Assembly: GCA_016932935.1 (NCBI GenBank)
Contig: JAFGBX010000082.1
Span: 1 to 56,792 of the forward strand
Origin: Promethearchaeota archaeon
GTDB taxonomy: Archaea; Asgardarchaeota; Lokiarchaeia; Sigyniarchaeales; Sigyniarchaeaceae
Direction: 5' to 3'
DNA length: 56,792 bases
Shown here: positions 15,966 through 39,168 of the stretch, one piece after another
Layout of the letters: every line of letters starts with the position of its first letter
Numbering within the stretch: the stretch's first letter is position 1
Notes under the pieces: model-generated
Told to the model about the DNA's origin: nothing
Seen by the model: only the letters and a program-made list of their open reading frames with translations
The model's database searches: none
Made by a program: the position numbers and the translations under genes

Positions 15966-16316
15966 AATATCACCTTGTATTGCACGAATTCACCTTTGCC
16001 AATCATCGCCTTTGCAGGCTTAAAAGACTGCCTTGAATAACGGCTCGGACAGCGGCAGCTATGAACAAACCATGCTTCGGACTCGTGGTAGATCCCGGAT
16101 TGTCCCGAGCGATCGATCCACCAGCTGCGGCTATAAAAGCTTGGGGGGCGAGAGGTATCTTGTTTTACGTATTCGATCGGGAGGAAAGCACCGATGGGGA
16201 ATCGGTCGAGCCCGGGTCATCGCGCTCCCATAACTTCAATACCCCAAAAGGATGAAAAGGAAGTTACTACGGTAGCCGGTCCGGCGCCGAGAACACGACG
16301 AGGGATTGAATAAGCC

Positions 16317-17135: not shown

Positions 17136-17188
17136 GCATGATTCGCTTTAATCACCGCTTTCAATAGAAAGCAAGAGCTGTAAATAAC

Positions 17189-18613: not shown

Positions 18614-18635
18614 ACCAACCAGCGGATGATGTAAT

Positions 18636-20551: not shown

Positions 20552-20553
20552 CC

Positions 20554-21123
20554 ATGAGGTTGGACGAAGTTGGACACCTCGCCAAGCGGGTCGTAAGGGG
20601 AAACCCGCATCCCACCCTTGTGGGTGGCTTCGAGATCGGGTTGCTCCTCTGCATCGAGAAGAGGCACGGGCGCTCGCCGTTCGAGCTCGATGACGACGAG
20701 GTCGAGGCGATCCGAGGCGAGTTCATGGATCTGGTGGCCAGTCGGAAGGACGAGGATAGCGACCTATGCTTCTTCGAAAATTCCCCCCCGCTGCCCAGGG
20801 ACGTCGATTTACGCATCGTGAAGATGGTCGAGATGGGACTGATCGACGTCGACGAGGGGGCGGAAGCTGATCCCGACGGGAAGCCCTTCACGATCTCGGA
20901 GGGCGGCTGGGCACTCGTCCTTAAAGAAATGAAGGATTCCAACCGTGGCCGCGCTGTGGACGAGATGGATCCAGGCCCTCAGGAGACCACCAGGGCTGCG
21001 ATCTTCCCGCCCATCTTGCCTCAGATTACTGGCGCCATGCGGGAGGACGGGCCGAAGCCGGTAGCGCGTGGAAAAGGGGGGGGACGGTCAAAGAAGCGCT
21101 CGGAGAACCGTTCGTTGAAGTGA
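20554..21123 (+). CDS. Hypothetical protein carrying module A only (array member 3)
   Basis: The ATG lies 2 nt after the previous stop. GLLLCIEKRHGRSPFELDDDEVEAIRGEFMDL...DVDLRIVKMVEMGLIDVDEGAEADPDGKPFTISEGGWALV, followed by a basic tail. Confidence 0.65.
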   Translation: MRLDEVGHLAKRVVRGNPHPTLVGGFEIGLLLCIEKRHGRSPFELDDDEVEAIRGEFMDLVASRKDEDSDLCFFENSPPLPRDVDLRIVKMVEMGLIDVDEGAEADPDGKPFTISEGGWALVLKEMKDSNRGRAVDEMDPGPQETTRAAIFPPILPQITGAMREDGPKPVARGKGGGRSKKRSENRSLK

Positions 21124-21243
21124 GGAATCATGCCGCGGGAATGAGTTTGCCCCCCTCCCATTTGAGCCTTAACATAATTGTTCCCCAAGAATGAACGCCG
21201 CGTCCACCACGCATATTTCTATTCGATCCGCCAGTACTAGGAC

Positions 21244-21756
21244 ATGGGAAGAGCGATCGCAGCAGAGGTCGGAGGACGCAAACTCATGAAGCATCGCACC
21301 AAGGCGCCATCGGTAATGGCCGCGGTAAAGCCCGACCGGCGCGGGGCGCCCGCACGGGGGGCAAACGCGAGCAAGCACTACCGCGCCCCATGCACGAGAA
21401 CGGAGCGGCTAGCGGGGGATTTCGAGGCGTCCTTGCTATCCAGTATCGCTCTCACGCACGGCTGCTCGCCGTTCTCGCTCGATGAAGAGGCGCTCGAGGC
21501 GATCCACGGTGGCTTCGTTGACTTGGCCGCCAGGTCGGAGGGTGTCAAGGACGACCCCGGCTTCTTCGATGTGTTCCCCGCGCTGCCCAGGGACGTCGAC
21601 TTGCGCATCATAAGGATGGTCGAGATGGGTTTCATCGACGTCGACGAAGGGATGGAGGACGGCCCCGGCGGGGAGCCCTTCTCGATCTCGGCGAAGGGAT
21701 GGGCGCTCGTCGACAAGGCGAAAGCGGCCCGGAAGGAGCACGCGTGGGGGGCATGA
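21244..21756 (+). CDS. Hypothetical protein carrying module A only (array member 4)
   Basis: SLLSSIALTHGCSPFSLDEEALEAIHGGFVDL...DVDLRIIRMVEMGFIDVDEGMEDGPGGEPFSISAKGWALV. This is a more diverged copy of module A. Confidence 0.6.
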   Translation: MGRAIAAEVGGRKLMKHRTKAPSVMAAVKPDRRGAPARGANASKHYRAPCTRTERLAGDFEASLLSSIALTHGCSPFSLDEEALEAIHGGFVDLAARSEGVKDDPGFFDVFPALPRDVDLRIIRMVEMGFIDVDEGMEDGPGGEPFSISAKGWALVDKAKAARKEHAWGA

Positions 21757-21828
21757 GGAACCGCGGGTTTCCGAATCGAGCGACCCTCACGATCGAACCC
21801 ACCACGCCAACTCGTCTTCGGTGATTCG

Positions 21829-23070
21829 TTAAAAGACCAATTTGAAGAGTGACGCGACCAGGCCACCGATCGAGAGCGAGAGCCCCGGCGTGAACAAGCT
21901 GACGAGACCAAGCAGGCCGTTCACGATCGTGTAGGCGTTGATCCCCTTCCGCAGCTTAGAGAGCGATTTGTGTAGCTTTCCCTCCTTTTTCTCGTCCACC
22001 TTGGACAAGCTCTTTTCGACCTCCTGGCCCAAGCTGGCGCGGGCGGCCGGGGCCCCGTCGAGCCGCTCCTCGATCCTGTCCATCTCGGCCGGGTCCTGCT
22101 GGATTTGCACGAGGCGCTGCTTGATGGTCTCCCTGTTCAGCTCGATGAGCTGGTTCAGCCGGTCGCCGAGCGCCTCGGCGGTTAGCTGCGTCTTCGCCGT
22201 TGAGAAGTCGATCTTCTTGATGTAGTTGATGATCTCCGCCGTGTACTGCGCCTGCTGCTCCGTGTCGGAGAAGTGCTTCTTGCTCTTCACGATCAGATCC
22301 TTGAGCCGGCCGTTGATGGCGCGCGCGTAGCTGTTCACCTCGTTCTCCAGCTCCAGGATGGACGAGATACCCGCGTTCGAGATGCCCTGGTCGACGATGA
22401 TCCCGGAGATCTTCGTGGCGAGCGAGCCCAGCCGCTCCTTCGAGATCTCGAGGATCTCCTGGGCGTTCGCGGCCATCACGTCCCAGAAGTCGTCGATGTA
22501 GTGCTGCAAGCCGACCTGCCCGGCTTCCAGATCCTCGCTGAGGGAGTCCATCTGGGACTCCTGCCGCTTCAGCGAGCCGGCGAGGCGATCGAGGAAACCC
22601 ATGACGTTGATGATGGACTCGCGGATGCCCTGCACGTCCTCGATGATGTACTTGTGATCCTCGTGAATCTTTCCAATCCCGAGCTCCTCGCGCAGTTTCT
22701 TGATGACCTCGGTGAAGTCGCCCTCCACGCGTGCCAGGTTCCGATCCGCGTCACCACCCTCCGTGGAACCCCCATCGACCACCTCGATCTGGTTCCATCC
22801 GGTGGAGTAACAGGCCTTGTCCACGGTCTCCACCTCTATCGAGATCTTGTATTGTCCAGGTTGGGCCTTCGGGATGAAGGTGATCTGCAATGCCTGCTCT
22901 GAGGGTGGGGTGTTGAAGACGATGACGTTGTCTTGCTGGTTGTAAGCCGTGCCCCCGGGCAAGATCCTCAAGATGTCGGGGAACGCCTTGATTCTTTTCA
23001 CCCGCGGGAGGGGCTGGTCGCGTGGAGCATCGGTTTCAATCACCAGCCGGTTCTTTTTCCCCAGCAGCAC
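21829..23070 (-). CDS. Tail-anchored coiled-coil protein with an N-terminal beta domain
   Basis: 413 aa with a GTG start. The N-terminus is beta-rich (QITFIPKAQPGQYKISIEVETVDKACYSTGWNQIEVVD). A long helical middle follows. The C-terminal hydrophobic segment INAYTIVNGLLGLVSLFTPGLSLSIGGLVASLFKLVF sits at the very end of the protein. Confidence 0.6.
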   Translation of the reverse strand: MLLGKKNRLVIETDAPRDQPLPRVKRIKAFPDILRILPGGTAYNQQDNVIVFNTPPSEQALQITFIPKAQPGQYKISIEVETVDKACYSTGWNQIEVVDGGSTEGGDADRNLARVEGDFTEVIKKLREELGIGKIHEDHKYIIEDVQGIRESIINVMGFLDRLAGSLKRQESQMDSLSEDLEAGQVGLQHYIDDFWDVMAANAQEILEISKERLGSLATKISGIIVDQGISNAGISSILELENEVNSYARAINGRLKDLIVKSKKHFSDTEQQAQYTAEIINYIKKIDFSTAKTQLTAEALGDRLNQLIELNRETIKQRLVQIQQDPAEMDRIEERLDGAPAARASLGQEVEKSLSKVDEKKEGKLHKSLSKLRKGINAYTIVNGLLGLVSLFTPGLSLSIGGLVASLFKLVF

Positions 23071-23347
23071 GGTGCCGGGAACGTTCGCTGTGTAGTTCGT
23101 GCCATTTCACCCGTCGATGGTCGTTGGTGGATTGGGGTAGTAATTCGTGTTACTCTTGTTTTTTGCCGAGTATATCGCTTGCGCGACGACTCGTCCACCA
23201 CACGCATAAACCGACGTGAATGCAAAGTGTATTCGATGGAAAAAAAATATTTAAACTCTACGGGAAACCCCCGGCTGGGAACTCGGGAACGGCCGGCTGG
23301 AAACCCTCCAACGATACCAACGACAGCAATAGCCGGAGAATAGCCAC

Positions 23348-24139
23348 ATGATCGACATCATCTACCTCGTCATCAACACCGTCGCGATGAACAGCTTCGT
23401 GCTCAACCCCAAGGCGGAAGAGACCTACAACTTGCTCAACGGCCAGTCCATCGGCGGCCATTGGGCGATCGTGCAGCGGATCTTCAAGAATGCGCAGGTC
23501 AGCGAGGAGAACATCGTCCTCTCGGACAAGGATCTCTCTTACAACCTGACCCTGTCGAACGGCAACTACCTCATCACGTTCAAGGAGGTGCAGCCGGGCG
23601 CGTTCCTGGTCTTCGTCTCGAACCTGTCGACCCCGTTGGCAGGGCTGAAGCTGCTGTGCGAAAGGGTCGGTAAGGCCTTCAACGAGCAGTACCCCGAGGT
23701 CGCCAAGAACCAGCCGTCGCCCGACTTGTACGAGGCATTCACGGAAACCGCGAGGAAGGCCATCCGAGCGTGGATCGAGGAACAGGAGGGCGATCTCGAG
23801 CACGACGTCCAGGTGGAGCCGTGCATGAAGCGCCGGTTCCACGTCACGCTGACGAACAGGTTCGGGGAACGCGTCAAGATATTGCGCGTCGACGCGAGCT
23901 CGACCCCCGACAACGGCCAAACCCTAGCCGTCGTCGACAACGTTAAGGCCTACTTCCCGGTCGGTATGATAATCGACGCCCGCGGCGAGGTGGTGGAGCC
24001 AGGGAGTGCGTTCTCCGTTTCCTTCGACGTGTCGTTCCCCGCGCGTGCCACGTACACGATGATGATCGTGGTCTACTACGGCTTCAAGGGGATCGAACGG
24101 TCGAAGACGATCTACTTCACTGACCAACTCGTGGTGTGA
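23348..24139 (+). CDS. Hypothetical protein: tentative Roadblock/LC7 (MglB)-like N-terminal domain + beta-sandwich
   Basis: 263 aa. The segment ...NLTLSNGNYLITFKEVQPGAFLVFVSNLSTPLAGLKLLCERVGKAFNEQY resembles the core strand-strand-helix of Roadblock/LC7 domains. The C-terminus (RFHVTLTNRFGERVKILRVDASS...TYTMMIVVYYGF) looks like an Ig/CARDB-like sandwich. Domain calls come from pattern only. Confidence 0.55.
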   Translation: MIDIIYLVINTVAMNSFVLNPKAEETYNLLNGQSIGGHWAIVQRIFKNAQVSEENIVLSDKDLSYNLTLSNGNYLITFKEVQPGAFLVFVSNLSTPLAGLKLLCERVGKAFNEQYPEVAKNQPSPDLYEAFTETARKAIRAWIEEQEGDLEHDVQVEPCMKRRFHVTLTNRFGERVKILRVDASSTPDNGQTLAVVDNVKAYFPVGMIIDARGEVVEPGSAFSVSFDVSFPARATYTMMIVVYYGFKGIERSKTIYFTDQLVV

Positions 24140-24158
24140 AGAACCAGGAGGAAAAAAA

Positions 24159-25337
24159 ATGACCATCTCATTCGATTACAAGATCTTCCAAAAAGACGGC
24201 GACGAATGGAAGCCTCAAGCCCCGGGCGCTGTGCCGATATACCGGCTCGACACGGGAACCTATAGGCTCGAATTCAGGATCTCCAATCCCGACGGTATCG
24301 GGACGGTTCACCTGGTCGGACACAAGCTCGCGGGTAAGACGATCCAGTTCGGCGGTGCTATAACCACAGTGCCAAAGGTCACTTACAATGTCCAGTCTGA
24401 TGGTGACGCCCTGGAACTCGTCTGCTCGGATAAAAAGGAACTCGTCGTCACGATCGACATTGACATCGTGGATGGTTACGGCGAGCCGATAGTCTACCAG
24501 CCAGAGGTCACCACCGCGGCCGGCAGTCCCGGGACGAGGGCGCAGCTGCGAATCGTCGCACCGGCGGAGTGCCACCTCCCCGCGGAGATCCACTGCGACC
24601 CGGTATTCGGTAACAACGGCGACGGGAACGCCTTCTTGATCCACATCGCCTTCACGAACAATCTCGTCGACAACGCGACGATCCACGTTACGGATTTCCC
24701 AGGCTGCAATGTGGTAAGGTTCGCAGGCCCCCCACCTGGAGCGGGTTATGCAATCGTAAATGATGTAAAAGGCAATAAGGTCTTGTTTAGTAACATCGCC
24801 AAGGGCGCGAAGGTCGACATCTGCGTGGCGGCCAGCAGGGTAGGCGGCGTCTCTCAAGGCGACTGGGATGCCCTCTTCAACTGTCCATGGAAATTGGGGT
24901 TTTTCCTTCCCAACTACGCCTTCCAAGGGAAATTGCCCCCATTCGATCCCTTGAACTACCGGTACATCGAAGGATCCTATAAAGATCTACCCGATTCCCT
25001 CGAGATTTCCCTCAAAGGCACGCCAGGCTCGCCGCGGGCCATCAAGCTCCAATCTCTCTGGTTCCACAAACACCGGCTTGGAGGAATCAAACCGGCCCAA
25101 GTTTTCCAACCAGGAAACGTGTTAGTATACGCTATGGAAGATGGGATGGGAAATTACTATTATGCGTTCAACCCGGCTAACAACCAAATCGCGCTCCCGA
25201 ATGTGCTGGAGATCCCGTTCCTAATAGGAGGCCGAAATCATTTCAACAGCAATCCGAATGTGAAAGTCAGCCTCACTTATACGTTCGACGCATGCGGGGC
25301 AGAACCCGCTGAGGTCGAACTAAAGCTTAGTCCATAG
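24159..25337 (+). CDS. Hypothetical beta-rich protein (392 aa)
   Basis: GGAGG lies 13 nt upstream of the ATG, and the gene starts 19 nt after the previous gene, so it is probably co-transcribed. Composition is balanced. I recognise no motif. Confidence 0.6.
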   Translation: MTISFDYKIFQKDGDEWKPQAPGAVPIYRLDTGTYRLEFRISNPDGIGTVHLVGHKLAGKTIQFGGAITTVPKVTYNVQSDGDALELVCSDKKELVVTIDIDIVDGYGEPIVYQPEVTTAAGSPGTRAQLRIVAPAECHLPAEIHCDPVFGNNGDGNAFLIHIAFTNNLVDNATIHVTDFPGCNVVRFAGPPPGAGYAIVNDVKGNKVLFSNIAKGAKVDICVAASRVGGVSQGDWDALFNCPWKLGFFLPNYAFQGKLPPFDPLNYRYIEGSYKDLPDSLEISLKGTPGSPRAIKLQSLWFHKHRLGGIKPAQVFQPGNVLVYAMEDGMGNYYYAFNPANNQIALPNVLEIPFLIGGRNHFNSNPNVKVSLTYTFDACGAEPAEVELKLSP

Positions 25338-25362
25338 GGGCGACAGCCCCCATCTATTCCAA

Positions 25363-25367
25363 TTTTT
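25363..25367 (+). terminator. Short oligo-T tract after the 23348-25337 gene pair
   Basis: TTTTT begins about 26 nt downstream of the stop at 25335..25337. Confidence 0.25.
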
Positions 25368-25429
25368 CGCGCCCATAGTCCGAAACCCGGGCTCGGCAAA
25401 GGCCCTCGCGATCCCCCTACTATACCCTA

Positions 25430-26101
25430 TTACAACCGTGAGCGCAATCTCCCCTTGAAATCGCTGAATACCCCGACCCTGCCGTCGAAGGCCTCCAGAT
25501 CCTTCTCGTGATCCCGCTCGTATTCGTTCAAGAAGCCCTGGAGCCGGTTTATCATCGCCTCTCCCGGTTCCCTCGTGGCGAGTATGATTAGCGAGCTCCA
25601 TTTCCCGGAAAGCAAGACCACGTGCATCCCGTCGAAGTGGATTGATCGAAAGGATGTCCCTCCCGTGGGATTCAACTCGTTCCCGAAGCCGCTAACCGCG
25701 CTGCAGAACCCCGTTATCAGGTTGGCGTCGTCGGGCTTGGTCGCACTGCCGAGGGAGAACCACGATGCCAGGTTGATGCCGCTCTTGTTCTCCTGCAAGA
25801 GAACCCATCTCAAGCCCTCGACGTCCTTTTCATACTCGGCACGGCTAGGAACCCACGGCTGCTCCCAGACGGCGTTCGTGACCTCGGGCTCCATTGTGCC
25901 CTCCTTGAAGCTCAAGTTGAAGACGAGGCTCTGGCCAGCCTTGACGGATACGCCACCCTTCAGGCCGTACACGCCCTTCCGCAACACGCGGAGGTAGTCC
26001 GTGCCGCCAGTCTCGGTGAACCCGTCCCTGTTCGTCTCTATCCTCAACAGTCTGTTGTCCTCAGTCGAATAATTGCGCAAGGAGAACCGCTTCGTGATCA
26101 T
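25430..26101 (-). CDS. Hypothetical protein: beta-sandwich + tentative roadblock/longin-like C-terminal domain
   Basis: 223 aa. The C-terminal half LRWVLLQENKSGINLASWF...ANLITGFCSAVSGFGNEL....FRSIHFDGMHVVLLSGKWSSLIILATRE...MINRLQGFLNEY has the alternating strand/helix signature of small-GTPase regulatory alpha/beta domains. The domain order is the reverse of that in 23348..24139. Confidence 0.5.
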   Translation of the reverse strand: MITKRFSLRNYSTEDNRLLRIETNRDGFTETGGTDYLRVLRKGVYGLKGGVSVKAGQSLVFNLSFKEGTMEPEVTNAVWEQPWVPSRAEYEKDVEGLRWVLLQENKSGINLASWFSLGSATKPDDANLITGFCSAVSGFGNELNPTGGTSFRSIHFDGMHVVLLSGKWSSLIILATREPGEAMINRLQGFLNEYERDHEKDLEAFDGRVGVFSDFKGRLRSRL

Positions 26102-26445
26102 TATTTACATCCCTCTCTGAATTTTGTCGCACAATGCTTCCAGGCCCAGTCTCTTGCCGACACACCGCTTCAGAAGGCGGCCCTTGGCTTTCAATAGTGC
26201 CCTCAGCAGTTATAAAGAATGCTTCGATTATGAAGAAAGCTCGTCTATTCGACGGGACATCATCTCCTCAAAAGCTATATCCCTCCTGCAACGATCCGTC
26301 AGCCAGCAATCGAAGTATTATCCCTCCCCAGCCCCTATAATAAGAAGGATGCCAGCTTGACCTTCAACGACGATGATTATCCTCCCAGCCCATCTCCGCG
26401 ATGCAGCTGTTCTCCACTTTTTATTCTGTCGATGTTTATTATGTC

Positions 26446-29400
26446 TTATTTCTTCAAACCGACCATTCGTTCAGTGATCTCGAGAAATGCTTCATGTACA
26501 TTCTCACCACTAAGCGCACTGGTCTCGATGTATAACGTATTATTTTTGGTGGCCCAGTTGGCTGCCTCATCTGGGTCAATGGTGCGACCAAGCTTCTCAA
26601 TGAGGTCGACCTTGTTTCCGATTAGTATATAGGGGATATTGCCACAATTGCGGATTACCTCCTCCACCCATTTAATCGTCACCTCTTGGTAGGTTTCGGG
26701 CCGGGTCAGATCAAAGATAAAAATTACGCCACTAGCGCCCTTATAAAATGTCGTGCGAACGAATTCAAAACGTTTTTGGCTTCCAATATCGAAAATGCTT
26801 AGCGTGGCTATTTCTTGATTTCTAAGCCCCACGTCTTTCGTGAGAATGTCGACGCCGATGGTCAATTTGTAATCAGCTTGAAACTCATCTTTTATGAACC
26901 GCTTTATAATACTTGATGATCCAACAGCAGAAGCTCCGCAAACAAGAAGCTTCAATTTATACGAGCTTTGCCTTTTCAAATCACTGCTCGATTGCTCCTT
27001 GATTAATCGATCCTTATTATCTATATCACTCAATTTAGACAATTCAGCGATGCTATTTGGGAGAACTCTCAGCGATTCAAGCTGCCCGATCGACTCGGGA
27101 AGCGAAGCAATCCGATTGTTATCGAGGTGCAGCTCTCTAAGGTTCTTGAGCAGCCCGATCGACGCAGGCAGGTGGGACAAATTGTTGCCGTTCAAACCCA
27201 GCACCCTGAGCTTTTTGAGCTGCCCGATCGATTCAGGAAGCGAGTCCAACTGGTTACCGTCTAGATAGAGTTCTTCCAGGCTGGTGAGCCCCCCTATCGA
27301 CGCGGGAAGCTTTTTTAACTGGTTATTTGCACAATACAACCGCTTCAAGCCTATGAGCTGCCCGATCGAATCAGGTAAATCAGACACAAGGTTGTTGTTT
27401 AGGTTTAACTCCTTGAGCCATTTGAGCCGCTCGATCGACGGCGGTAGGATATTCAATGCTTGGGATGGATCTCCGATGAGTCTGAGTATGATCACGTGTC
27501 CTCGTGGAGAAGCGGAGAAACCGAACGAGTACCTTTGTTCAGCTCGCCACGCTGGAATGGCCTTCCCACCTAGCGCTCGCTGCAATTCCATCATCGCCAT
27601 CAACTCGCTCGGTTTTAGCTTAATTCCTTGATATAGGCCATTCTCATCGTGCTCGATGATGGCTTCGATGAGGTGCATTACCGCGTCCTCAACCCCCTCC
27701 CCGGTCTTGGCGCTCGTCTCGTGGTACCCGATCAGGCCGTGTTTCTCCATGATTTGCTTAAAGAAATCCGGGTCGTAGGCTGGAGGCCCTTGATTCGGGT
27801 CGACCTGGTCTTTCTTGTTCCCAACGAGGATGATGGGTAAGGAGGGATCCTCGGAGCGCAGCAGCGGTAACCAGCGGTCCTCCAAGGAGAAGGTCGATTG
27901 TGGCTGAGTTAGGCTGAACATCAAGATGGCGCCTTTGGAGCCCTTGACGAAGTCCTCTTGGAGTTTTTTGATGATGAAGCGGTCTTGCTTCCCCATGCTC
28001 CAGAAAACGAGGCTGTAATCCACCCCACCATGGTTCAGCTCCTTCACGAAAATGTTCGAAAAACACATCGATGTGTCGGCAACGAAGCGATCTGAAACGA
28101 TCCTGTGGGCGAGCGTGCATCCACCAACGCCACCGTCGCAGGCGATGAATATCTTAAGCGTAACGGGGGCGTTCTTCTTCGGTTGTGGAACCTCCAATTT
28201 ATCGACAAGGCGGATCAGGCGGTTTTTATCGGGAATCGGGCCGAGCTTGTTGTCATATATGGTGAGATCCGTCAGATTGGGCAATTCATAGAGAGAGTCT
28301 GGTAGACTAGTGATCGCATTATCCTGGAGTTTGAGAACCTTTAGCTTGTGGAGCCGCCCGATGCTGTCGGGGATCCGGTCAATCCTGTTACTGAACAACG
28401 TGAGGTGTCCCAGCGAGGTCAGATCCCCGATGGAATCGGGAAGTCGTTCCAGTTCGTTCCCGTGCAGCTCAAGGCGGGTCAATTGGTTCAATTTTGAGAT
28501 TCCTGGGGGTATTTCCTTTAGCTTGTTTCCAAAGAGCGATAAAAGCGAGAGACTATGCAAGTTGCATAGAGCTGTGGGAATTTCCACTATGTTGTTATTG
28601 CCTAGTAGCAAAACAACGAGGTTTGTTAGCCTTTCAATCGTGCTCGGAAGCACCTTAGCACCCGAGTTGACGAGGTTCAAGGCGACGACGTGATGGTTAA
28701 GCAGTACACACGAGGGCATACTGGGCACGAGAATGAGTGCCTCCCGTGCAGCGTCGATTTTATCACGGCCACTTTTCAAGGAAAAGAAGTCTAATAATGT
28801 GATGGGTTTGCCCAATACCTTCTCGAGATCCTCGAGGGAGGTTCGCTCCGGCTCCACGATGGGCAGGTCGTGGAAATAAACGACTCGTTGAAGCGGGGAA
28901 GCGCTCACACGTGTGTTGGATCCCGGCATCTGTTTTCTGATGAGAATAGCGATGAGTGGATCCTCGACCAAGACGAGCTTCAATTTCCCGAGAGTATGAA
29001 AGATATCAGGGACTGTCTGGATCGCGTTGCAACGGATGTAGAGTTCTCGGAGTGTGACGAGTTCCCCGAGCGTTTCAGGCAATCGAGTGAGCTTGTTTCC
29101 ACTGAGACCCAAGACCTCGAGGTTCCTCAGGTTTCCGATCGATTCTGGGAGCGCGGCCACGTCGTTCATGGCCAATTTCAGCTCGCGCAAGTCGGCCAAC
29201 CCTCCAATCTCGTTCGGGAGGGCGGACAGCCGGTTTTGCCACAACCAGAGCTCGACCAATGCTTTTAAATTCCCGATAGAAGCCGGTAACTTCTCTATAT
29301 CGTTTCTCGACGCCCAAAGTCTCTTCAAGGACGAAAGATCACCGAGCCCGTCGGGGAAGCCCTTCAGCCGGTTACCTTGCGTGTCTAGAGCGACCAGATT

Positions 29401-31296
29401 TTTCATTTGGCAGACCGCATCGGGCAAAGATTCGAGGCGATTTTCAGAAAGAACCAATTCCCTCAAGGAGCGCAAGTCTCCAATGCTCGAGGGGAGCCTT
29501 GTTAACTCGTTGCCGTAGAGATCGAGTACCTCGAGCGAGACGAGGCCGCCGAAGGATTCGGGCAGTGATTCTAGAGAGTTCTTCCTTAACGTTAGCGTCT
29601 TCAAGTTTTTCAAATCCCCGATGGTATGAGGGAGGGTTCCGAGCCTGTTCTCGTTCAACTTGAGCGCCTCTAGCGACCGCATTGAACCGATCTTGTCGGG
29701 TAGTTGCCTCAACCCATTACTGAAGAGCGAAAGCACCCTTAATCGTGAGAGATCGCAAACAGAATCGGGGATTTCTTGCAGGTAGTTGCCGGCAAGGTAC
29801 AAGGCCTCTAAGGAGGCCAGCTTTCCAACGTCTCGGGGCAGCTCTTGGAGATGATTCCAAGATGCGTACAATTCCCTTAAAAGCTTTAATGAGCAGATTT
29901 CGTTTGGTATATGGTTTATGTTGTTGTTATCGATCTTCAATGCTTCTAAGCCTTCCAATTGACCCAAGTCGCTTGGTAAACTGGTCAACCGGTTTCGCCC
30001 AACATACAGAAATTTCAGCTTATTGAGTTTTCCGAGGGGTGAAGGCAAGTCCCGCAGCTGGTTGCCATCCAGATCGAGCCTTTTTAAAGAAACAAGGTCG
30101 CAGAGAGAGTTGGGAAGTCGTTTAATCTCGTTCTCGCTCAGATCGAGAGACTCTAAGGATAGTGGGGTCGTGAAGACGTCGGTGAGGTCCTGTAACTTGT
30201 TGTTCTTCAATTCTACTTTTCTCAACGCCTTTAGATCTGGCAGTTTGCACATGCGCTCCAATTTATTGTTGGACAGGCGAAGGTGTCGTAATTTTTTCAA
30301 TTCCTTCAAGGAATCGGGCACGCTTTTTAAAACGTTACTGGCTGCTGAGAGATGTTCCAACGAACCAAGGCCTCCTATCGAGGCGGGCAACTCGTTCAGG
30401 TTATTATTGTCCAGCACGAGCGATTTCAAGCCATTCCCTCGTGGCATCTCCACCGAGATCGACTCGAGACGGTTGAACCCCAGATCGAGCCCTTCAAGGT
30501 TTTCCAACCCACGGAATGTGAAAGCCTTCAATTTATTCTGGGACACCATCAAGGTCTTCAACCTTTTCAACTCGTTGATGCATGCAGGGAGATCCTCGAA
30601 GATGTTATCATCGATCGATAATTTCTCCAATTTTTGCAATTTTTCAAGGGATCCAGGCAGCGAGGACAAGCGGTTGGATGATAACCGCAATTCAATTAGC
30701 TTTTCGAGGTCGCCAATCGAACCGGGTAGCCCTTGTATTTTCAAGCCCGAGATGACCAGGCCAATCACGTGGGTGTCCTTCGGGACGAAGCCGCATTCAT
30801 CAATGTCAACACGCTCCAGCTTGGGAATAGCCCTTCCGATAACCTTTTCCAGCTCTATCAATGCTCGACATTCGTTCTCTTCGAGCAAGACGCCTTGATA
30901 GATGTTCTTCGTGAGCTCTAGGTCGCACCTAGCAACCATGGCTCCTGCATCCGACTGTCGCTTCTGCCACCCCCGCCTCTTGCATAATGCTACGATCTTC
31001 TCCGATTCGGCGCGTGCTTCCATCCATTTCTTCCCGTTAATGAATCCCTCCGCCCTATCGATTGATCCTTTGTATTCCTCTCTCGCATCTATCTCCGCTT
31101 GAATCGCGAGAGTGAGCACCTCACGTAGTCTCTTGTCGCTTGCGGACTTGAGAAGGACTTTCACTTGATCCTCATCTACAATGCCCCCGGCGGCGAGGAT
31201 CACGTCCTTGACCGCGCCTTCATCGATCGCCTTTTCGAAGGCCTGGAGTACGAGGGCCGAGTAGACGTAGATTAATTTCAAGTCCTTGGAACTCAT
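26446..31296 (-). CDS. 1616-aa multidomain protein: P1/L12-stalk-like N-terminal module, three LRR blocks and two Ras/Roc-like domains with degenerate P-loops
   Basis: N-terminus: LIYVYSALVLQAFEKAIDEGAVKDVILAAGGIVDEDQVKVLLKS. There are about 40 LRRs of the type L..L.L..N.L..LP.SIG.L. Ras-like domain 1 (about 27649..28158): G1 CDGGVGGCT (no Lys), G3-equivalent FWSMGKQ, G4 VGNKKD, G5 ETSAK. Ras-like domain 2 (26449..26961): G1 GASAVGSSS (no Lys), G3 FDIGSQ, G4 IGNKVD, G5 ETSAL. No COR-sized domain follows either one. Confidence 0.85.
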   Translation of the reverse strand: MSSKDLKLIYVYSALVLQAFEKAIDEGAVKDVILAAGGIVDEDQVKVLLKSASDKRLREVLTLAIQAEIDAREEYKGSIDRAEGFINGKKWMEARAESEKIVALCKRRGWQKRQSDAGAMVARCDLELTKNIYQGVLLEENECRALIELEKVIGRAIPKLERVDIDECGFVPKDTHVIGLVISGLKIQGLPGSIGDLEKLIELRLSSNRLSSLPGSLEKLQKLEKLSIDDNIFEDLPACINELKRLKTLMVSQNKLKAFTFRGLENLEGLDLGFNRLESISVEMPRGNGLKSLVLDNNNLNELPASIGGLGSLEHLSAASNVLKSVPDSLKELKKLRHLRLSNNKLERMCKLPDLKALRKVELKNNKLQDLTDVFTTPLSLESLDLSENEIKRLPNSLCDLVSLKRLDLDGNQLRDLPSPLGKLNKLKFLYVGRNRLTSLPSDLGQLEGLEALKIDNNNINHIPNEICSLKLLRELYASWNHLQELPRDVGKLASLEALYLAGNYLQEIPDSVCDLSRLRVLSLFSNGLRQLPDKIGSMRSLEALKLNENRLGTLPHTIGDLKNLKTLTLRKNSLESLPESFGGLVSLEVLDLYGNELTRLPSSIGDLRSLRELVLSENRLESLPDAVCQMKNLVALDTQGNRLKGFPDGLGDLSSLKRLWASRNDIEKLPASIGNLKALVELWLWQNRLSALPNEIGGLADLRELKLAMNDVAALPESIGNLRNLEVLGLSGNKLTRLPETLGELVTLRELYIRCNAIQTVPDIFHTLGKLKLVLVEDPLIAILIRKQMPGSNTRVSASPLQRVVYFHDLPIVEPERTSLEDLEKVLGKPITLLDFFSLKSGRDKIDAAREALILVPSMPSCVLLNHHVVALNLVNSGAKVLPSTIERLTNLVVLLLGNNNIVEIPTALCNLHSLSLLSLFGNKLKEIPPGISKLNQLTRLELHGNELERLPDSIGDLTSLGHLTLFSNRIDRIPDSIGRLHKLKVLKLQDNAITSLPDSLYELPNLTDLTIYDNKLGPIPDKNRLIRLVDKLEVPQPKKNAPVTLKIFIACDGGVGGCTLAHRIVSDRFVADTSMCFSNIFVKELNHGGVDYSLVFWSMGKQDRFIIKKLQEDFVKGSKGAILMFSLTQPQSTFSLEDRWLPLLRSEDPSLPIILVGNKKDQVDPNQGPPAYDPDFFKQIMEKHGLIGYHETSAKTGEGVEDAVMHLIEAIIEHDENGLYQGIKLKPSELMAMMELQRALGGKAIPAWRAEQRYSFGFSASPRGHVIILRLIGDPSQALNILPPSIERLKWLKELNLNNNLVSDLPDSIGQLIGLKRLYCANNQLKKLPASIGGLTSLEELYLDGNQLDSLPESIGQLKKLRVLGLNGNNLSHLPASIGLLKNLRELHLDNNRIASLPESIGQLESLRVLPNSIAELSKLSDIDNKDRLIKEQSSSDLKRQSSYKLKLLVCGASAVGSSSIIKRFIKDEFQADYKLTIGVDILTKDVGLRNQEIATLSIFDIGSQKRFEFVRTTFYKGASGVIFIFDLTRPETYQEVTIKWVEEVIRNCGNIPYILIGNKVDLIEKLGRTIDPDEAANWATKNNTLYIETSALSGENVHEAFLEITERMVGLKK

Positions 31297-31350
31297 CCAA
31301 TCCTCATCTCTGTCATTGTTCTTTTTTTGGATGCACCGCTATCCGCACAT

Positions 31351-33894
31351 CTATGGCGTGGGAGGATATGTAGCCTCCACATATTCGATCAAGGCTCTGA
31401 AATCTTCATGCCCGATCGTTTTAACGATCCTCTTGATTTTTTCCATGTCTGCCTTGCCGCCGGCCGCATCGATTACTTTCTTGATGGCATCCTCGTTGAT
31501 CTTTATATCAAACGCGTTGAGCAGCAGCGCTGAATAGTAAATCCCCTTTTGTATGGACATCTCTCTCTTGACGTCGTTGAGTTTTTTTCTGGCCGCATCG
31601 CCCTCTTTCTTCCATCCCTCCCTCTCGCACGTTCTAAGTGCTCCGATGAGCAGATCCCTCGCCCCGTCCAGATCGCTCGACGACACGCGGCTCTCAGCAT
31701 CTTCCATCCCGCGGGTGTAGCTCTCGTATGCAGCTAGCTTCGAATCAATCGCCGCGATGGCGGCCCTGGCCGCTTCGCTTCTTTCCTCCAACCCGAATCG
31801 ACGGCATTGCCTCTGTAGCTTTTGCCATTCCAGCTTGATATCCATCCATTTCTGGTGATCTGTCGAAGCCAAGTCCTCGGCGAGAAGAGCTATATATTCC
31901 GAATTCGACCTATCCAGCGCTAGGCACGTCCGGGTTTTTTTATCCGCATCGAGCTGGCCCGCGCGCCAGCCGTTTTCCTTACAAAGCAGTCCGATCTGTG
32001 CCCACGTGCGGGCCGCTTGATCCCACGTCGCCATACCCATCCGCTCGTGTGCAACGTGCCTTAACCGTAAGTATTCCTTGAACGATCGATATCTTGGGGG
32101 CTCCTTACCAGCCTTGTACACGTTGCTCAGCGGCACCCCCATCGCTTCCATACATACAAGGATGGAAAAACTATCCCGTTCGTCCAGCTTGTTGATAACC
32201 CTCTTGAAATCCGACCATTCCGCGTTTGCTTTTTTCTTTGCTTCCACTGTAGGTGCATTCTTCGAGCGATCATTGTGATGCACGCCGAACGTCGCTGCGC
32301 CGAACCAACCGAATATAATCTCCGCCAACTGGTTCTCCTCATTACCTCTCGCACTTTTTCTAGACTCCAACAACCCGGCCGAGACGAGTGCGTCGACGGG
32401 ATCTGTACTCCACGATATCCGGCCCACCCATCCGCGAAAATCCCTCATGGCCATCAAACTCTTGCAGAAGGTACTGAAGTGGAGCAACTTATTCTCGTCG
32501 ATATCCATCCGGTTCAAGTATTCCCTCAGCAATTGGTGATCATCGTCGCAAGGCAGCACCGCATGCTCCTTATGCCATGCCGAGACGAGCCTTATCCACA
32601 AGGGATGGCGGGCAAGGGGCTGGAATTCGAGGCTCCAGAACTTCGGCGCTGGAACCTTGTAGCTCTTGATGGCGGCATCCGTTTCCTTTCCCGTGAGGCG
32701 AGAAAGGACGAAACTGGCACCGATTTTACCCGGATCCCACGTGATAGGAGAGATTATTGTTAGGTTGTGTTTGACAGCCGTGCAAGAATTCCACTCGTGG
32801 AACCGGCTTGAAAGGACGATGAGCTGCTTTTGGCTCCTGCCTAGCGACCTCAAGAAATCGGTGATGATCCACTTGCGATCCTTTTCCCCGATCTCATCGT
32901 ACCCGTCCAGGATCCAATATATTTTTTCCCTCCTTTTACCCAATGCCTGGGATAGACGAATTATATCGGCTATCGCCGCATCCCTACTTGTACCCATTTC
33001 GAGGGAAAAGAAATTGTCGATCCCGTCCCGCAATCGCACGAAAAACACGACGTGGCCGTCCGCAACGAGCCGGTTGCTCCAATGGGCGAGCAGCCAGGTC
33101 TTCCCAAAGCCCGCTTGCCCGAGCAGCAAGAACAAGCGGCAGCCACTGCCAGCACCTGCCTGCTGGAATTGTTCGAACCTCTCGTCAGCATCTTTCCTCG
33201 TGATGAACCGCGACGGATCGTATTGAATGTCGTTCCGGCTGCAGAAGACCGTGTTGGCCATATGGATCCTGGCGATCTCTCGTAATTCTTCGTAGGAGAG
33301 GCCATTCACAAAGAATACATTCTGGCAACCATTGCATTGAAAGTTGCCTGGGGGTATTGAGCCGCGATCGTGGATCTTTTTGCATATAGGGCATGAGACC
33401 AAGCGTTTCTCTCGTAGTATAACCTCCAAGTCAGCAGCGCTGCATTCGGTCGCACCCGTGATGACCGGCTTTGGTTCGACCGTAGTAGAGCCCGTTATAA
33501 CAACGAGTACCTTGATCTCCTGTCCCGTGATGGGATATCCGCGCTTTATCAAGAACGCGAGCTGCGGGATCGCCACGAGTGAGAGCTTGTTGATGGGTTT
33601 GATCCGCTCCTTCAAGAGATAGAGCCCCTTCCGCAGTGGCCTGAAGTATGCGTCCCACTTGAGCCAGACCGATCGCTGGCTCCCCTCCGATATCGAGCAG
33701 CCGGCGACCTCGAACCCCGCCTCGCTACCCTCCACCACGGCGACCGCGTGGAACGGCACCGCGTCCCGGAACTCCCAAGGGATCTTATCGGTGCTTCCAC
33801 GCGTCGTGGTGCCCAGCTCGAACCGCACGAGGGTCATGCTTGCCAGCTCCGGTGTATAACATGTCTTTAAGTGGTAAAAAGGACGCTGCCTCAT
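31351..33894 (-). CDS. NACHT/STAND NTPase with N-terminal beta domain + zinc ribbon and a C-terminal P1/L12-stalk-like module
   Basis: The start was moved to ATG 33894 because it forms an ATGA overlap with the upstream stop at 33891..33893. The upstream 211 aa of the track ORF is R/G-rich shadow overlapping the vWA gene. Zinc ribbon: CPICKKIHDRG...FQCNGCQNVF. Walker A: FLLLGQAGFGKTWLL. NACHT Walker B: IYWILDGYDEI, then LIVLSSRFHE. C-terminus: IYYSALLLNAFDIKINEDAIKKVIDAAGGKADMEKIKRIVKTI. Confidence 0.8.
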   Translation of the reverse strand: MRQRPFYHLKTCYTPELASMTLVRFELGTTTRGSTDKIPWEFRDAVPFHAVAVVEGSEAGFEVAGCSISEGSQRSVWLKWDAYFRPLRKGLYLLKERIKPINKLSLVAIPQLAFLIKRGYPITGQEIKVLVVITGSTTVEPKPVITGATECSAADLEVILREKRLVSCPICKKIHDRGSIPPGNFQCNGCQNVFFVNGLSYEELREIARIHMANTVFCSRNDIQYDPSRFITRKDADERFEQFQQAGAGSGCRLFLLLGQAGFGKTWLLAHWSNRLVADGHVVFFVRLRDGIDNFFSLEMGTSRDAAIADIIRLSQALGKRREKIYWILDGYDEIGEKDRKWIITDFLRSLGRSQKQLIVLSSRFHEWNSCTAVKHNLTIISPITWDPGKIGASFVLSRLTGKETDAAIKSYKVPAPKFWSLEFQPLARHPLWIRLVSAWHKEHAVLPCDDDHQLLREYLNRMDIDENKLLHFSTFCKSLMAMRDFRGWVGRISWSTDPVDALVSAGLLESRKSARGNEENQLAEIIFGWFGAATFGVHHNDRSKNAPTVEAKKKANAEWSDFKRVINKLDERDSFSILVCMEAMGVPLSNVYKAGKEPPRYRSFKEYLRLRHVAHERMGMATWDQAARTWAQIGLLCKENGWRAGQLDADKKTRTCLALDRSNSEYIALLAEDLASTDHQKWMDIKLEWQKLQRQCRRFGLEERSEAARAAIAAIDSKLAAYESYTRGMEDAESRVSSSDLDGARDLLIGALRTCEREGWKKEGDAARKKLNDVKREMSIQKGIYYSALLLNAFDIKINEDAIKKVIDAAGGKADMEKIKRIVKTIGHEDFRALIEYVEATYPPTP

Positions 33895-35738
33895 CCCCGG
33901 TTCTCGGTCGCCTTCCAGTACGTTCGCCAGAAGGCGACCAGCCGCGCCCAGCGCGCGTCGGAGACCGGGTTCCCCGCCGCGTTCCTCGTGTACGACTCGC
34001 CCATGGCCACGTCGATGAGCACCGGCTTGTTGTCGACGAACAGCCCCACGCACGCGTGCCGCACGCGCACTTGCTCGATGTACTTGACCTCGATGACGCC
34101 GCAAGGTATCCCGAAGTGGCGCAGGATGCCGATGATCAGGTTCGAATGCTCGCCACAGCAGCCGTTTCCCGCGTCGAACACCTCCATGGCAGTGCGGTAT
34201 GGCCGGCCCTTCGGGAACGTGTACTTGAACCGTTCCGTGACCCAGGCCCGGACGCGGTCGACGGTGGCGGCCTGGTTGCCGGGAACGAGCAAGCCTGCCA
34301 CCGCGTCCTTGCACCGCTGTTCTATCGCGAACGGGAACGACTGGTCGGTGTTGTACGCCCGCGGCGCCCGGGCTTTCTGCGGGGGCATCTGCCAGACCTG
34401 GCTCGCGTGCCGCGTGAACAAGGCGAACGACCGGACGTTGACGACGTGCGCCTTCTCCAGCTCCCTCTCGCACCTGTCGAAGAAAAACTGGTCGTCCTCG
34501 GGCTTGTTGTTGGGGCTGCTGGCCCAAAAGACGAACACCTCGTGGCCTTCCTCGAGCTTCCTGAGTTGCGTCACGACGTCTTGCTGGATCTGGTCGTCCT
34601 CGTCAGCCCGGAGCTTGCCGCCCGTCGGGGCCCCGTCCAGGAAGATGAACACGACGTTGTTGCCGGTCTTGGCGTCCAAACCCGCGACCAGGGGGAGGGC
34701 CTCGTCGAGCCGGGTCGCCCCCGTGCATTGCATGGAGAGCAGGTCCCGGATCGCGCCCCGGCGGGTTCCCTCGCCGTACTCGTGCACCTTGCGGTGGTTC
34801 GGGTTCCGCTGGTCGGAGAACGGGACGACACGCGCTTGCCCGCCGAGCTCCACGACGGTCTCCGCGATGCTCAGGGCGGCCAGCAGCAGCGTCGTCCGCA
34901 CCTTGGTCGTGCCCCCGCCCGGGCTCGGGGTGGACTGCTCGGTCGACGCCGAGATGTCGACGAACACGACGCAATGCCTCGGCAGCTCCCGCTTGCTCAG
35001 GTTGCGGTACACGAACTTCGGGTTCCCCGTGGCCAGCGTCCGCATCGTGTGCGGGAGGGACACCCGCCCCCGTCGCTGGGTCGTGTACTCGATCGTGGGC
35101 GTCCCCCTGATGCGCTGCTGGAGCTCTTTGTTGAGGACCTTGGCGAGGGAGGAGACGGTGGCCACGACCTTCCCCACGTCGAACCGGGACATGTTGGTCA
35201 GCCCCTCCGTGACGAGGTCGTACTTGTGCGCCTCCTCGATGTTCTTGAACGCCGCACGGAGGTCTTCCATGGGATCCACGACCACGTCCTCGTTCTTGGC
35301 CAGCTCGATCACCAGCTCGCTGTCCTGGGTCGGGTCGTACTCGACCTCCTTCCTCACCTCCACGTGCTCCCTCCTGACTTCGACGCGCCTCGGCGGGGGC
35401 GGCGGGACCCGCGAGTCCGTTTCCCGCTCCCGAACGGGCGGCGGCGGGGCCTTCTCGACCCTGACGACGACCCTCTCCGGGTTGTTCGATGGTCGGAACC
35501 GCACGGTCTTGCCGGCGGCGCTGACGGCGACCTCGAGCTCAGGCAGGTCGTACTCCACGGGGAATGGGAACGAGACCGAGTAGCCCGAGTCGGAGTAGGA
35601 CTGGCCGTCGACGCTCACCGTCACCCGGCCATAGACGTATAGGCCGTCCTGGTCGACGATGTCGACCTGGAACTTGAACGGGGGTTCTCCTTCGAAGAGA
35701 CGGCCGTAGCTCTCGTGCGCCCTCAAGGCATGCGTCAC
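33891..35738 (-). CDS. von Willebrand factor A (vWA) domain protein with a C-terminal transglutaminase-like core
   Basis: 615 aa. MIDAS elements: VVFVDISAS, GATRLDEAL, FIFLDGAPTGG. C-terminus: GNGCCGEHSNLIIGILRHFGIPCGVIEV...VRHACVGLFVDNKPVLIDVA (Cys-His-Asp pattern). The + strand ORFs 33840..35642 and 33871..35583 are shadows. Confidence 0.8.
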   Translation of the reverse strand: MTHALRAHESYGRLFEGEPPFKFQVDIVDQDGLYVYGRVTVSVDGQSYSDSGYSVSFPFPVEYDLPELEVAVSAAGKTVRFRPSNNPERVVVRVEKAPPPPVRERETDSRVPPPPPRRVEVRREHVEVRKEVEYDPTQDSELVIELAKNEDVVVDPMEDLRAAFKNIEEAHKYDLVTEGLTNMSRFDVGKVVATVSSLAKVLNKELQQRIRGTPTIEYTTQRRGRVSLPHTMRTLATGNPKFVYRNLSKRELPRHCVVFVDISASTEQSTPSPGGGTTKVRTTLLLAALSIAETVVELGGQARVVPFSDQRNPNHRKVHEYGEGTRRGAIRDLLSMQCTGATRLDEALPLVAGLDAKTGNNVVFIFLDGAPTGGKLRADEDDQIQQDVVTQLRKLEEGHEVFVFWASSPNNKPEDDQFFFDRCERELEKAHVVNVRSFALFTRHASQVWQMPPQKARAPRAYNTDQSFPFAIEQRCKDAVAGLLVPGNQAATVDRVRAWVTERFKYTFPKGRPYRTAMEVFDAGNGCCGEHSNLIIGILRHFGIPCGVIEVKYIEQVRVRHACVGLFVDNKPVLIDVAMGESYTRNAAGNPVSDARWARLVAFWRTYWKATENRG

Positions 35739-35744
35739 CCATCA

Positions 35745-39020: not shown

Positions 39021-39040
39021 GGATGGATCAGCGGAGGAAT

Positions 39041-39050
39041 GTCATATAAG
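39041..39050 (-). promoter_or_regulatory. TATA box for the 39020->26446 operon
   Basis: The minus strand reads CTTATATGAC about 22-31 nt upstream of ATG 39020, consistent with a leaderless first gene. Confidence 0.5.
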
Positions 39051-39168
39051 ACTAGGGGGAACATGCCGTTCCCCGACCACCATGAAAGCAAGGGAACTCG
39101 TGAAGGGCCTCGTGGAGCGTGGAGACGGCCCCGGCCTCAAGCACCTCCCCGTGAACCTGGAAGGTGGT

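Follow-up and report, generated by a model that had tools for sequence, protein, structure and literature searches.

The window analysed here is the whole of a 56,792-nucleotide contig (JAFGBX010000082.1, assembly GCA_016932935.1) from Promethearchaeota archaeon. It carries a single gene for a large leucine-rich-repeat (LRR) protein with two Rab-like G domains, both of which have lost the P-loop lysine and kept the G4 and G5 motifs. Judging from aligned motifs, the conservation of individual columns and a relative with the same pattern of losses, we consider it likely that these are maintained pseudoGTPase domains and not the result of simple decay; most likely they are non-catalytic modules, of a type already known and, for an archaeon, unusual. 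The G1 to G3 motifs bind the beta- and gamma-phosphates and Mg, and G4 and G5 confer guanine specificity (PMC4316618). PseudoGTPase domains are a recognised group and act as interaction modules (PMC5593906, PMC12490416).

A Pfam scan of the 1,616-aa protein returned Ras (PF00071, E = 4.8e-59) and Roc (PF08477, E = 2.9e-34), each over two stretches, together with LRR_14, LRR_8 and LRR_4. The repeats in its three LRR blocks (Table 1) were counted from a regular-expression repeat scan, inspection of the sequence and the Pfam LRR families. A first-pass annotation, made from the sequence letters without database searches, had described two Ras/Roc-like domains that lack the P-loop lysine and retain G4 and G5. 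This description was borne out by the Pfam E values, the phmmer register and the motifs themselves (NKKD and ETSAK in domain 1, NKVD and ETSAL in domain 2), and the motif strings and coordinates it gave are exact, both on the minus strand of one open reading frame (ORF). It had also placed the domains between LRR blocks with no COR domain. The absence of COR holds, as Pfam gave no match to PF16095 or PF25497 in this protein, whereas COR is recorded for many of the matches from our first protein search; the placement is wrong for domain 2, which is C-terminal, has LRRs on one side only and is followed by the stop codon after 5 aa. That this is not a classical ROCO protein therefore stands, with no COR in Pfam and only ~75 aa between domain 1 and LRR block C. 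ROCO proteins (LRRK2, bacterial Roco) are likewise large and multidomain, with LRRs N-terminal to a Ras-like domain, an order also shown by many matches of the first protein search, but the window protein lacks COR and has two G domains.

The first protein search, for which domain 1, the LRRs and domain 2 served as the query, returned mostly LRR proteins. The P-loop lysine is kept in all 15 of its matches with a G domain, including 13/13 LRR-Roc/Ras homologues with GK[ST] and two tandem-Ras proteins, P0004 and P0005, with GKT and GKR. P0004 and P0005 are JGI metagenome proteins, and their first Ras domain is 52-55% identical to domain 2 of the window; this first domain has a canonical GKT and a degenerate G4 (GNGLE/GNGLD versus NKxD), the opposite pattern of motif loss. 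We found no full-length orthologue, and the exact 1,616-aa protein is neither on record nor among the matches; as no match of the first search is longer than 1,021 aa, the searched database may contain no long proteins, which makes this absence uninformative. The two Rab-like domains are a mere 28% identical to each other and so do not represent a recent internal duplication.

Motif register was set by residue-by-residue phmmer alignment, to Rab14 over the full domain for domain 1 (E = 5.9e-16) and to a Thorarchaeota Rab (PDB 7EZB) for domain 2 (E = 4.1e-32). Both domains are G-domain homologues by full-length profile or phmmer match, and the fold was also modelled for domain 1. ACDGGVGGC of domain 1 pairs with IGDMGVGKS of Rab14, and GASAVGSS of domain 2 pairs with GDGAVGKT of the Thorarchaeota Rab. 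The first-pass annotation had proposed alignment against Ras/Rab/Roc profiles as a check, and no other register puts a Lys/Ser pair into the P-loop of either domain. The replacement of Lys by Ser in domain 2 was thereby confirmed at Ser1460. The corresponding claim for domain 1, that Cys replaces Lys, was one residue off: the lysine position is occupied by Gly1059, and Cys1060 stands at the Ser/Thr position. In G3, domain 1 deviates as had been stated, while the loss of G60 in domain 2 had gone unremarked.

Neither domain has the GxxxxGK[ST] G1 motif of an active GTPase, and neither has an intact DxxG(Q) G3 motif, since domain 1 reads SMGKQ, with both the Asp and the Gly lost, and domain 2 reads DIGSQ where its family has D[IV]GGQ. 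The two domains differ in the switch-I threonine: domain 1 has Cys1078 in its place, whereas domain 2 retains Ser17, Thr35, Asp57 and Gln61 (Ras numbering). G4 as [NT]KxD and G5 as SA[KL] are present in both. By sequence, both domains combine a GTPase fold with the loss of catalytic G-motif residues that characterises pseudoGTPases.

Domain 1 contains three cysteines in total, at Ras positions 10, 17 and 35. An AlphaFold2 (AF2) model built from a 29-sequence multiple sequence alignment (pLDDT 84.3, pTM 0.82) predicts a complete G fold, and its best Foldseek matches are RhoA, KRAS and Rab structures, with target-normalised TM scores mostly of 0.8-0.9. A word-indexed protein search with domain 1 gave at most 37% identity throughout; closer relatives came from an exhaustive HMMER search of 1.84 billion representatives. 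Among these, P0307 (multidomain, 599 aa, 54% identical to domain 1), P0308 (multidomain, 565 aa, 50%) and P0309 (stand-alone, 174 aa, 45%) have a canonical GKT P-loop. The P-loop is degenerate in P0310, a 1,030-aa protein with a C-terminal G domain 47% identical to domain 1 (44% pairwise), which reads GDGGVGACT ... KLCLS ... WRMGAQ ... TKMD ... TSAK. Domain 1 and P0310 have in common the loss of K16, cysteines at Ras positions 17 and 35, the loss of D57 and G60, and the retention of [NT]KxD and TSAK; in P0310, Ala replaces K16 and also occupies position 60, where domain 1 has Lys. Conservation in relatives was another check that had been proposed, and for domain 1 this relative carries the same substitutions. 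P0310 differs in having no LRRs and in its N-terminal region, which resembles that of P0307, as does the large middle region, and which includes an extra canonical G domain (G-like P-loop). Its gene lies at 8001..11093 of JBGLND010000001.1, a 3.7-Mb contig (our locus L001) of the Promethearchaeota metagenome-assembled genome (MAG) PPR_0005 (GCA_041305945.1), and is also present in a second assembly of the same genome. It is flanked by genes for large unannotated proteins.

To place these losses in context, we compared the K16 position across 170 aligned sequences, comprising H-Ras, domains 1 and 2 of the window and 167 database G domains, the latter extracted from the 150 top-ranking representatives. 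Lysine is present in 151, arginine in 10 and a gap in one truncated domain; the remaining eight have another residue, two of these being the window's own domains and six being database domains. The cases without lysine are mostly in multidomain proteins, and the alignment indicates that lysine loss recurs repeatedly within the clade of domain 1. Only domain 1 and P0310 have the cysteine pair at positions 17 and 35. Scans of genomes and metagenomes, which reach close relatives only, gave no match with domain 1 alone; with an alignment of domain 1 and P0310 they recovered P0310's own genome and nothing from metagenomes. The cysteine-pair subtype is therefore known from two lineages only.

P0307 and P0308, with canonical P-loops, have weaker G4 and G5 motifs (LKKD/ASC and LKLD/GSC) than domain 1 and P0310. 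That the P-loop-dead pair keeps G4 and G5 better than its canonical cousins hints at continuing selection on the guanine pocket. It is possible, though doubtful, that both domains are class-i pseudoGTPases that bind no nucleotide at all and serve purely as interaction modules or as spacers between LRRs, with G4 and G5 kept for fold stability. The loss of five key phosphate/Mg residues in domain 1 is consistent with this, as are the closest known counterparts, the tandem pG1 and pG2 domains of p190RhoGAP and the pseudoGTPase domain of AAGAB, which are G folds embedded in larger eukaryotic proteins, have defective nucleotide-binding motifs, are reported to be defective in or incapable of nucleotide binding, and act as interaction modules (PMC5593906, PMC12490416). 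However, the window domains differ from these in having canonical G4 and G5, and domain 2 keeps most of its Mg/phosphate ligands and is separated from an active family by just a few substitutions. Fold stability by itself is also a poor explanation for motifs that are complete in both P-loop-dead relatives and relaxed in the canonical cousins.

The opposite alternative, that the domains are non-canonical active GTPases or true nucleotide switches, seems unlikely. Under it, the lysine would be supplied from elsewhere, for example by Lys1103 in domain 1 or by a Lys/Arg finger that a partner, the second G domain or one of the LRR blocks contributes; the domains would still cycle, or else would exchange nucleotide rapidly at low affinity and so sense the GTP/GDP ratio. 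The canonical G4 and G5 of both domains, the ligands retained in domain 2, the lysine of domain 1 at the gamma-phosphate-proximal G60 position, and the better preservation of G4 and G5 in domain 1 and P0310 than in P-loop-intact cousins would all be compatible with this, and the literature contains the idea that the catalytic residues of an apparent pseudoenzyme can have moved to other positions (PMC10211241). In contrast, the alanine of P0310 means that a migrated lysine is not conserved, domain 1 is without all three Mg-site residues (S17, T35 and D57), and Gly60 is replaced in both domains. The backbone amide of Gly60 contacts the gamma-phosphate, and we know of no Ras-superfamily GTPase shown to be active without the Walker A lysine. 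Lys1103 (SMGKQ), taken as a candidate migrated lysine, was down-weighted on account of the alanine in P0310.

Domain 2 derives from a family of stand-alone Asgard proteins of ~175 aa, annotated as 'Rab family GTPases', with BLASTP identities from 77% downward and members in Sigyn-, Loki/Prometh-, Hod-, Thor-, Hermod- and Heimdallarchaeota. Its closest match is P0121, a Rab family GTPase of Ca. Sigynarchaeum springense (77% by BLASTP), and the solved Thorarchaeota Rab, PDB 7EZB, belongs to the same family (PMC10933270). Domain 2 is like the stand-alone proteins in length, in its switch I segment and in G4 and G5, and is 57-75% identical to the family members in our alignment; it differs in forming the C-terminal end of a fusion with a large LRR protein and in having SAVGSS and FDIGSQ in place of AAVGKT and WDxGGQ. 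In a 21-sequence alignment, AAVGKT and WD[IV]GGQ are present in 20/20 homologues of domain 2. Among its 120 best homologues, GxxxxGK[ST] is found in 119 and GKR in one, so that the lysine is absent in none; neither K16 to Ser nor G60 to Ser occurs in any of the 120. The nearest relatives are stand-alone paralogues, not orthologues, and their uniformly canonical GKT would at face value mark domain 2 as decayed in the terms of the first-pass annotation; the evidence for constraint opposes this.

To assess constraint, a column was counted as conserved if it held the same residue in at least 19 of the 20 homologues, which gave 83 conserved and 95 variable columns. Domain 2 is altered at 10 of the 83, with the changes concentrated in the phosphate/Mg site (5/14 columns, compared to 5/69 elsewhere; Fisher p = 0.010). 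The changes outside that site are L to V, L to I, I to V, V to I and A to V. The lowest-scoring replacements (BLOSUM62 = 0) are K to S and G to S, plus the A to V in G4, and the first two appear to be the functionally severe ones. The 18-residue switch-I segment, FQADYKLTIGVDILTKDV, is the exact family consensus, and 19 of the 22 residues from G3 on are as in the family. Overall, domain 2 keeps 73/83 conserved columns (88%) and is identical to its nearest homologue at 60/95 variable columns (63%), so that 12% of conserved and 37% of variable columns differ (Fisher p = 1.4e-4). Compared to the P0121 gene, the nonsynonymous divergence (dN) is 0.18 and the synonymous divergence (dS) 2.4, which is saturated, so only the low dN was used; G+C content at third codon positions (GC3) is 0.47 in domain 2 and 0.80 in the P0121 gene. 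These comparisons indicate that domain 2 is still constrained and not in neutral decay, and the pattern looks as if phosphate binding had been specifically disabled while the surface that binds partners was left as it was.

The same data make simple decay, in which the G domains drift neutrally and G4 and G5 are merely uneroded as yet, very unlikely. In its favour, all close relatives of domain 2 have canonical GKT and WDxGGQ, the codon usage of this accessory gene is atypical, and no orthologue shows long-term conservation of the domain 2 substitutions. However, the ORF is intact over 4.85 kb, and the column test, the low dN and the P0310 pattern all point to maintenance by selection. Moreover, the lowest-scoring changes of domain 2 fall in G1 and G3 (K16 and G60) and G4, and domain 1, at no more than 54% identity to any relative, nonetheless has perfect NKKD and ETSAK motifs and a confidently modelled full G fold, its pattern recurring in P0310 at 44-47% identity. 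A sequencing, assembly or frame artefact is a negligible prospect even for a MAG contig, given that the Ser codon of domain 2 is TCA, at least two base changes from AAA or AAG and so no single-base error, that several independent codons are altered in each domain, that the frame is open throughout, and that P0310 shows the pattern in an independent genome and in two assemblies of it.

Table 1. Coordinates of the LRR/Rab-like gene, its domains and motifs, and its immediate neighbours in the window.
Feature	Position (nt)	Residues (aa)	Strand	Remarks
LRR/Rab-like gene	26446..31296	1,616 in total	(-)	One unbroken ORF, 4.85 kb
P1-like N-terminal domain	31114..31278	7-61	(-)	Small, helical; TIGR03685, 3A1Y, BLASTP
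Cap motif and LRR block A	28972..30879	~140-775	(-)	~25 repeats
Cap motif and LRR block B	28207..28845	~818-1030	(-)	~6 repeats
Rab-like domain 1	27658..28161	1046-1213	(-)	P-loop-dead by motif; phmmer, AF2, Foldseek
Domain 1 G1, CDGGVGGCT	28114..28140	1053-1061	(-)	Ras G10 to Cys1053, K16 to Gly1059, S17 to Cys1060
Domain 1 switch I, TSMCF	28060..28074		(-)	Ras T35 to Cys1078
Domain 1 G3, FWSMGKQ	27985..28005		(-)	D57 to Ser1100, G60 to Lys1103, Q61 retained
Domain 1 G4, NKKD	27808..27819		(-)	Canonical
Domain 1 G5, ETSAK	27706..27720		(-)	Canonical
Cap motif and LRR block C	27022..27615	~1228-1425	(-)	~6 repeats
Rab-like domain 2	26464..26952	1449-1611	(-)	Pfam Ras, phmmer, BLASTP
Domain 2 G1, GASAVGSSS	26911..26937	1454-1462	(-)	K16 to Ser1460; Ser1461 at the S/T position
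Domain 2 switch I, YKLTIG	26854..26871		(-)	Thr35 retained; segment is the family consensus
Domain 2 G3, FDIGSQ	26776..26793		(-)	Family WD[IV]GGQ; W to Phe, G60 to Ser1506
Domain 2 G4, NKVD	26605..26616		(-)	
Domain 2 G5, ETSAL	26512..26526		(-)	
NACHT-like STAND NTPase	31351..33897	848 in total	(-)	54 nt upstream of the LRR gene
STAND P1-like C-terminal domain	31390..31536	788-836 (last ~55 residues)	(-)	TIGR03685
Orphan protein	25430..26101	223 in total	(-)	Downstream of the LRR gene, same strand

The STAND NTPase encoded upstream of the LRR gene has an intact Walker A GKT, with weak Pfam matches to NACHT, NPHP3_N and nSTAND5 and a weak NCBIfam match to HyoA/EruA NACHT. Its C-terminus matches the ribosomal P1 family TIGR03685 (E = 1.4e-6 for the whole protein, 3.8e-8 for the C-terminal 83 aa), and so does the N-terminus of the LRR protein (NCBIfam, E = 1e-7), which also matches the P1 N-terminal domain of PDB 3A1Y (E = 0.0035). 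The two P1-like copies are 44% identical to each other (BLASTP E = 2e-11), are the only two in the window by tblastn, and flank the 54-nt intergenic gap. Ribosomal P1 N-terminal domains are dimerisation modules. One adaptor domain is thus found at the termini of both a STAND protein and the product of the adjacent gene, which suggests a homotypic adaptor pair. A terminal domain shared by a core NTPase and an adjacent gene product is the arrangement by which EAD pairs provide homotypic coupling in prokaryotic conflict systems (PMC7159879), and there, too, a small helical domain stands at the termini of the STAND NTPase and its neighbour; the pair described here differs in that the adaptor resembles the dimerisation domain of the ribosomal stalk protein P1 and was found in one locus only. 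A limited full-text search, which is no proof of novelty, found no paper joining P1/Ribosomal_60s with NACHT or STAND proteins.

The ORF of the STAND gene, called as 31351..34527 (-) with a TTG start at 34527, is over-extended by ~210 codons, and the real Met is at 33895-33897. The over-extension is an Arg/Gly/Ala-rich, out-of-frame read-through of a transglutaminase-like gene at 33891..35738 (-). This gene, for a transglutaminase-core protein, is the next one upstream from the STAND gene, shares its strand and follows a gene at 35745..39020 (-) whose 1,091-aa product has two P-loop regions (PADLOC HerA-like, mad8; Pfam AAA_5/AAA_22). These two genes may share an accessory module with the STAND gene.

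Downstream, the 223-aa orphan has no match in Pfam, NCBIfam, PADLOC or PHROG, and the 223-, 263- and 392-aa neighbours have no Pfam match even at E <= 10. A single-sequence AF2 model of the 223-aa protein was poor (pLDDT 45), with a roadblock-like succession of secondary-structure elements (alpha-beta-beta-alpha-beta-beta-beta-alpha) over aa 87-204, and its Foldseek matches were nearly all to LAMTOR, roadblock/LC7, MglB and TRAPP/longin proteins, at E values of 3e-3 to 5e-2 and low TM scores. This offers a weak hint that the orphan may be a roadblock/longin-type platform, dimers of this kind being the usual platforms for small GTPases (PMC10933270).

Based on the data presented above, neither Rab-like domain would be expected to complete a canonical Mg-GTP hydrolysis cycle, and both would be constitutive binding modules or, at most, weak-binding and fast-exchanging modules for nucleotide sensing. 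Small GTPases bind nucleotide at pM-nM affinity, and mutation of K16 or G60 in Ras weakens nucleotide binding, blocks the switch and traps exchange factors in a dominant-negative manner. The positions of the Ras mutants K16N, S17N and G60A are those altered in domain 2 (K16 and G60) and domain 1 (K16, S17 and G60); the Ras mutants are engineered and of the oncology era, whereas the substitutions described here are natural and fixed in a fusion protein. Because natural substitutions at K16 and G60 are combined with an unchanged switch I segment, domain 2 would best be read as a permanently open Rab mimic. It could then still bind whatever the stand-alone Rab binds, such as regulators of the roadblock/longin type, of which the gene just downstream may encode a candidate; we know of no guanine nucleotide exchange factor for the parent stand-alone family. 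Domain 1, with its Mg site gone, would bind a guanine compound non-canonically or not at all. The LRR blocks would provide large binding surfaces, and the P1-like dimerisation pair probably couples the LRR protein and the STAND NTPase; NTPase, LRRs and pseudoGTPases would then make up an NLR-like assembly split over two proteins. We put forward this specific model of partner and coupling only tentatively.

A more far-reaching combination, which we think has little chance of being right as a whole, would be an archaeal two-gene NLR-like system with domain 2 as a Rab decoy or bait and domain 1 as a thiol switch. In it, the adaptor would derive from ribosomal stalk P1, domain 2 would be an integrated decoy with intact switch surfaces and a disabled P-loop, and domain 1 and P0310 would have exchanged the Mg-GTP switch for a thiol-based one. 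Since the cysteines at positions 17 and 35 replace the protein ligands of Mg, switch I could be held against the P-loop by a disulfide or by a bound soft metal.

Several observations weigh against the interpretation of the domains as maintained pseudoGTPases, or against the couplings proposed for them. In a neighbor-joining tree, domain 1 groups with the canonical P0307 and P0308, away from P0310; bootstrap support for domain 1 with P0310 is 35%, falling to 3% when the eight shared deviant columns are removed. The pattern shared by domain 1 and P0310 thus rests on two lineages and could reflect either descent or convergence. For the substitutions of domain 2 there is no whole-protein orthologue for comparison, and its dN/dS figure averages both lineages, with dS saturated. 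With Ser17, Thr35 and Asp57 present, domain 2 could also remain nucleotide-bound in vivo despite the loss of K16. Finally, there is just this one locus with the P1-like pairing, and the roadblock/longin hint for the orphan comes from a low-confidence model. We nonetheless favour maintained pseudoGTPase domains as the likely explanation.

The LRR gene lies in a lineage-specific insertion of ~37 kb and is accessory. In related Sigynarchaeota MAGs (loci L008 and L009, ~80% nucleotide identity), the window is essentially colinear over 40181..52489, in three blocks with short gaps, and the histone gene at 3201..3484 is likewise matched; the distance between the histone and radical-SAM anchors is ~36.7 kb in the window (~3485..40180) compared to 1.3 kb in the related MAGs. 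G+C content drops from 0.62-0.68 to 0.49-0.56 across ~12-34 kb. The LRR gene itself has a G+C content of 0.50 and a GC3 of 0.62, and GC3 is 0.74-0.93 for genes outside the low-GC stretch. Besides the NACHT-like STAND NTPase and the HerA-like double-P-loop protein, the insertion encodes a nSTAND3-Ras fusion, TPR proteins and many orphans. PHROG gave no sign of a provirus, with no match for ten ORFs of the island. PADLOC gave no match for the STAND protein or for the other neighbours of the LRR gene, and for other island genes it gave weak HerA-like, PDC-S73 and ZorA-like matches only.

The nSTAND3-Ras fusion, at 11248..13677 (+), joins an nSTAND3 NTPase with a canonical GKT to a C-terminal Ras domain. 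The P-loop of the latter, GGPPGSGKE, keeps the lysine and has Glu in place of the Ser/Thr Mg ligand; its G3 is canonical (WDLSGQ), its G4 is TKLD and its G5, VSQKS, is atypical. The low-GC insertion also contains a paralogue of TATA-binding protein at 16317..17135 (+) (Pfam TBP, E = 4.7e-35) with two repeats and an N-terminal extension of ~88 aa, which is a singleton at 90% clustering, and a 413-aa orphan at 21829..23070 (-) with a weak MotA/ExbB/ZorA-like match (PADLOC ZorA, E = 4.2e-5). Just left of the insertion are two tRNA calls, at 2445..2624 (-). The first is a 99-nt 'tRNA-Asp' with an odd anticodon, ATC, according to ARAGORN; Rfam confirms a tRNA at 2448..2543, and the length suggests an intron. 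The second, a tRNA-Cys at 2548..2624, is below the Rfam gathering score. A uroporphyrinogen-decarboxylase-family gene of the window clusters at 90% identity or more with proteins of Candidatus Sigynarchaeota and Sigynarchaeum springense, an affiliation with which the TBP gene and the many best matches to Asgard proteins are in agreement.

Asgard archaea have the largest Ras-superfamily GTPase repertoires among prokaryotes, and arguments about how eukaryotic membrane traffic arose draw on them. Limited full-text searches, which again do not establish novelty, returned no paper in which pseudoGTPases and Asgard GTPases are connected. A Pfam match or a name such as 'Rab family GTPase' or 'small GTP-binding protein' does not tell whether a switch is working or dead. 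Here, a domain up to 75% identical, as aligned, to a conserved Asgard Rab appears to have lost its phosphate-binding residues and kept its partner-binding surface. Domain 1 would be a second, older and more radical case, with a Mg-site cysteine pair that is also present in a second lineage of phylum level. If the pairing of the P1-like domains and the STAND NTPase is true, it would represent a new type of adaptor for prokaryotic NLR-like systems, with Rab-like modules linked in. More generally, because, in the set examined, about one in ten of the Rab-like domains related to domain 1 has a residue other than lysine at the P-loop position (10 with Arg and 6 with another residue, of ~167), there may be fewer true switches in Asgard archaea than counts of their 'GTPases' suggest.

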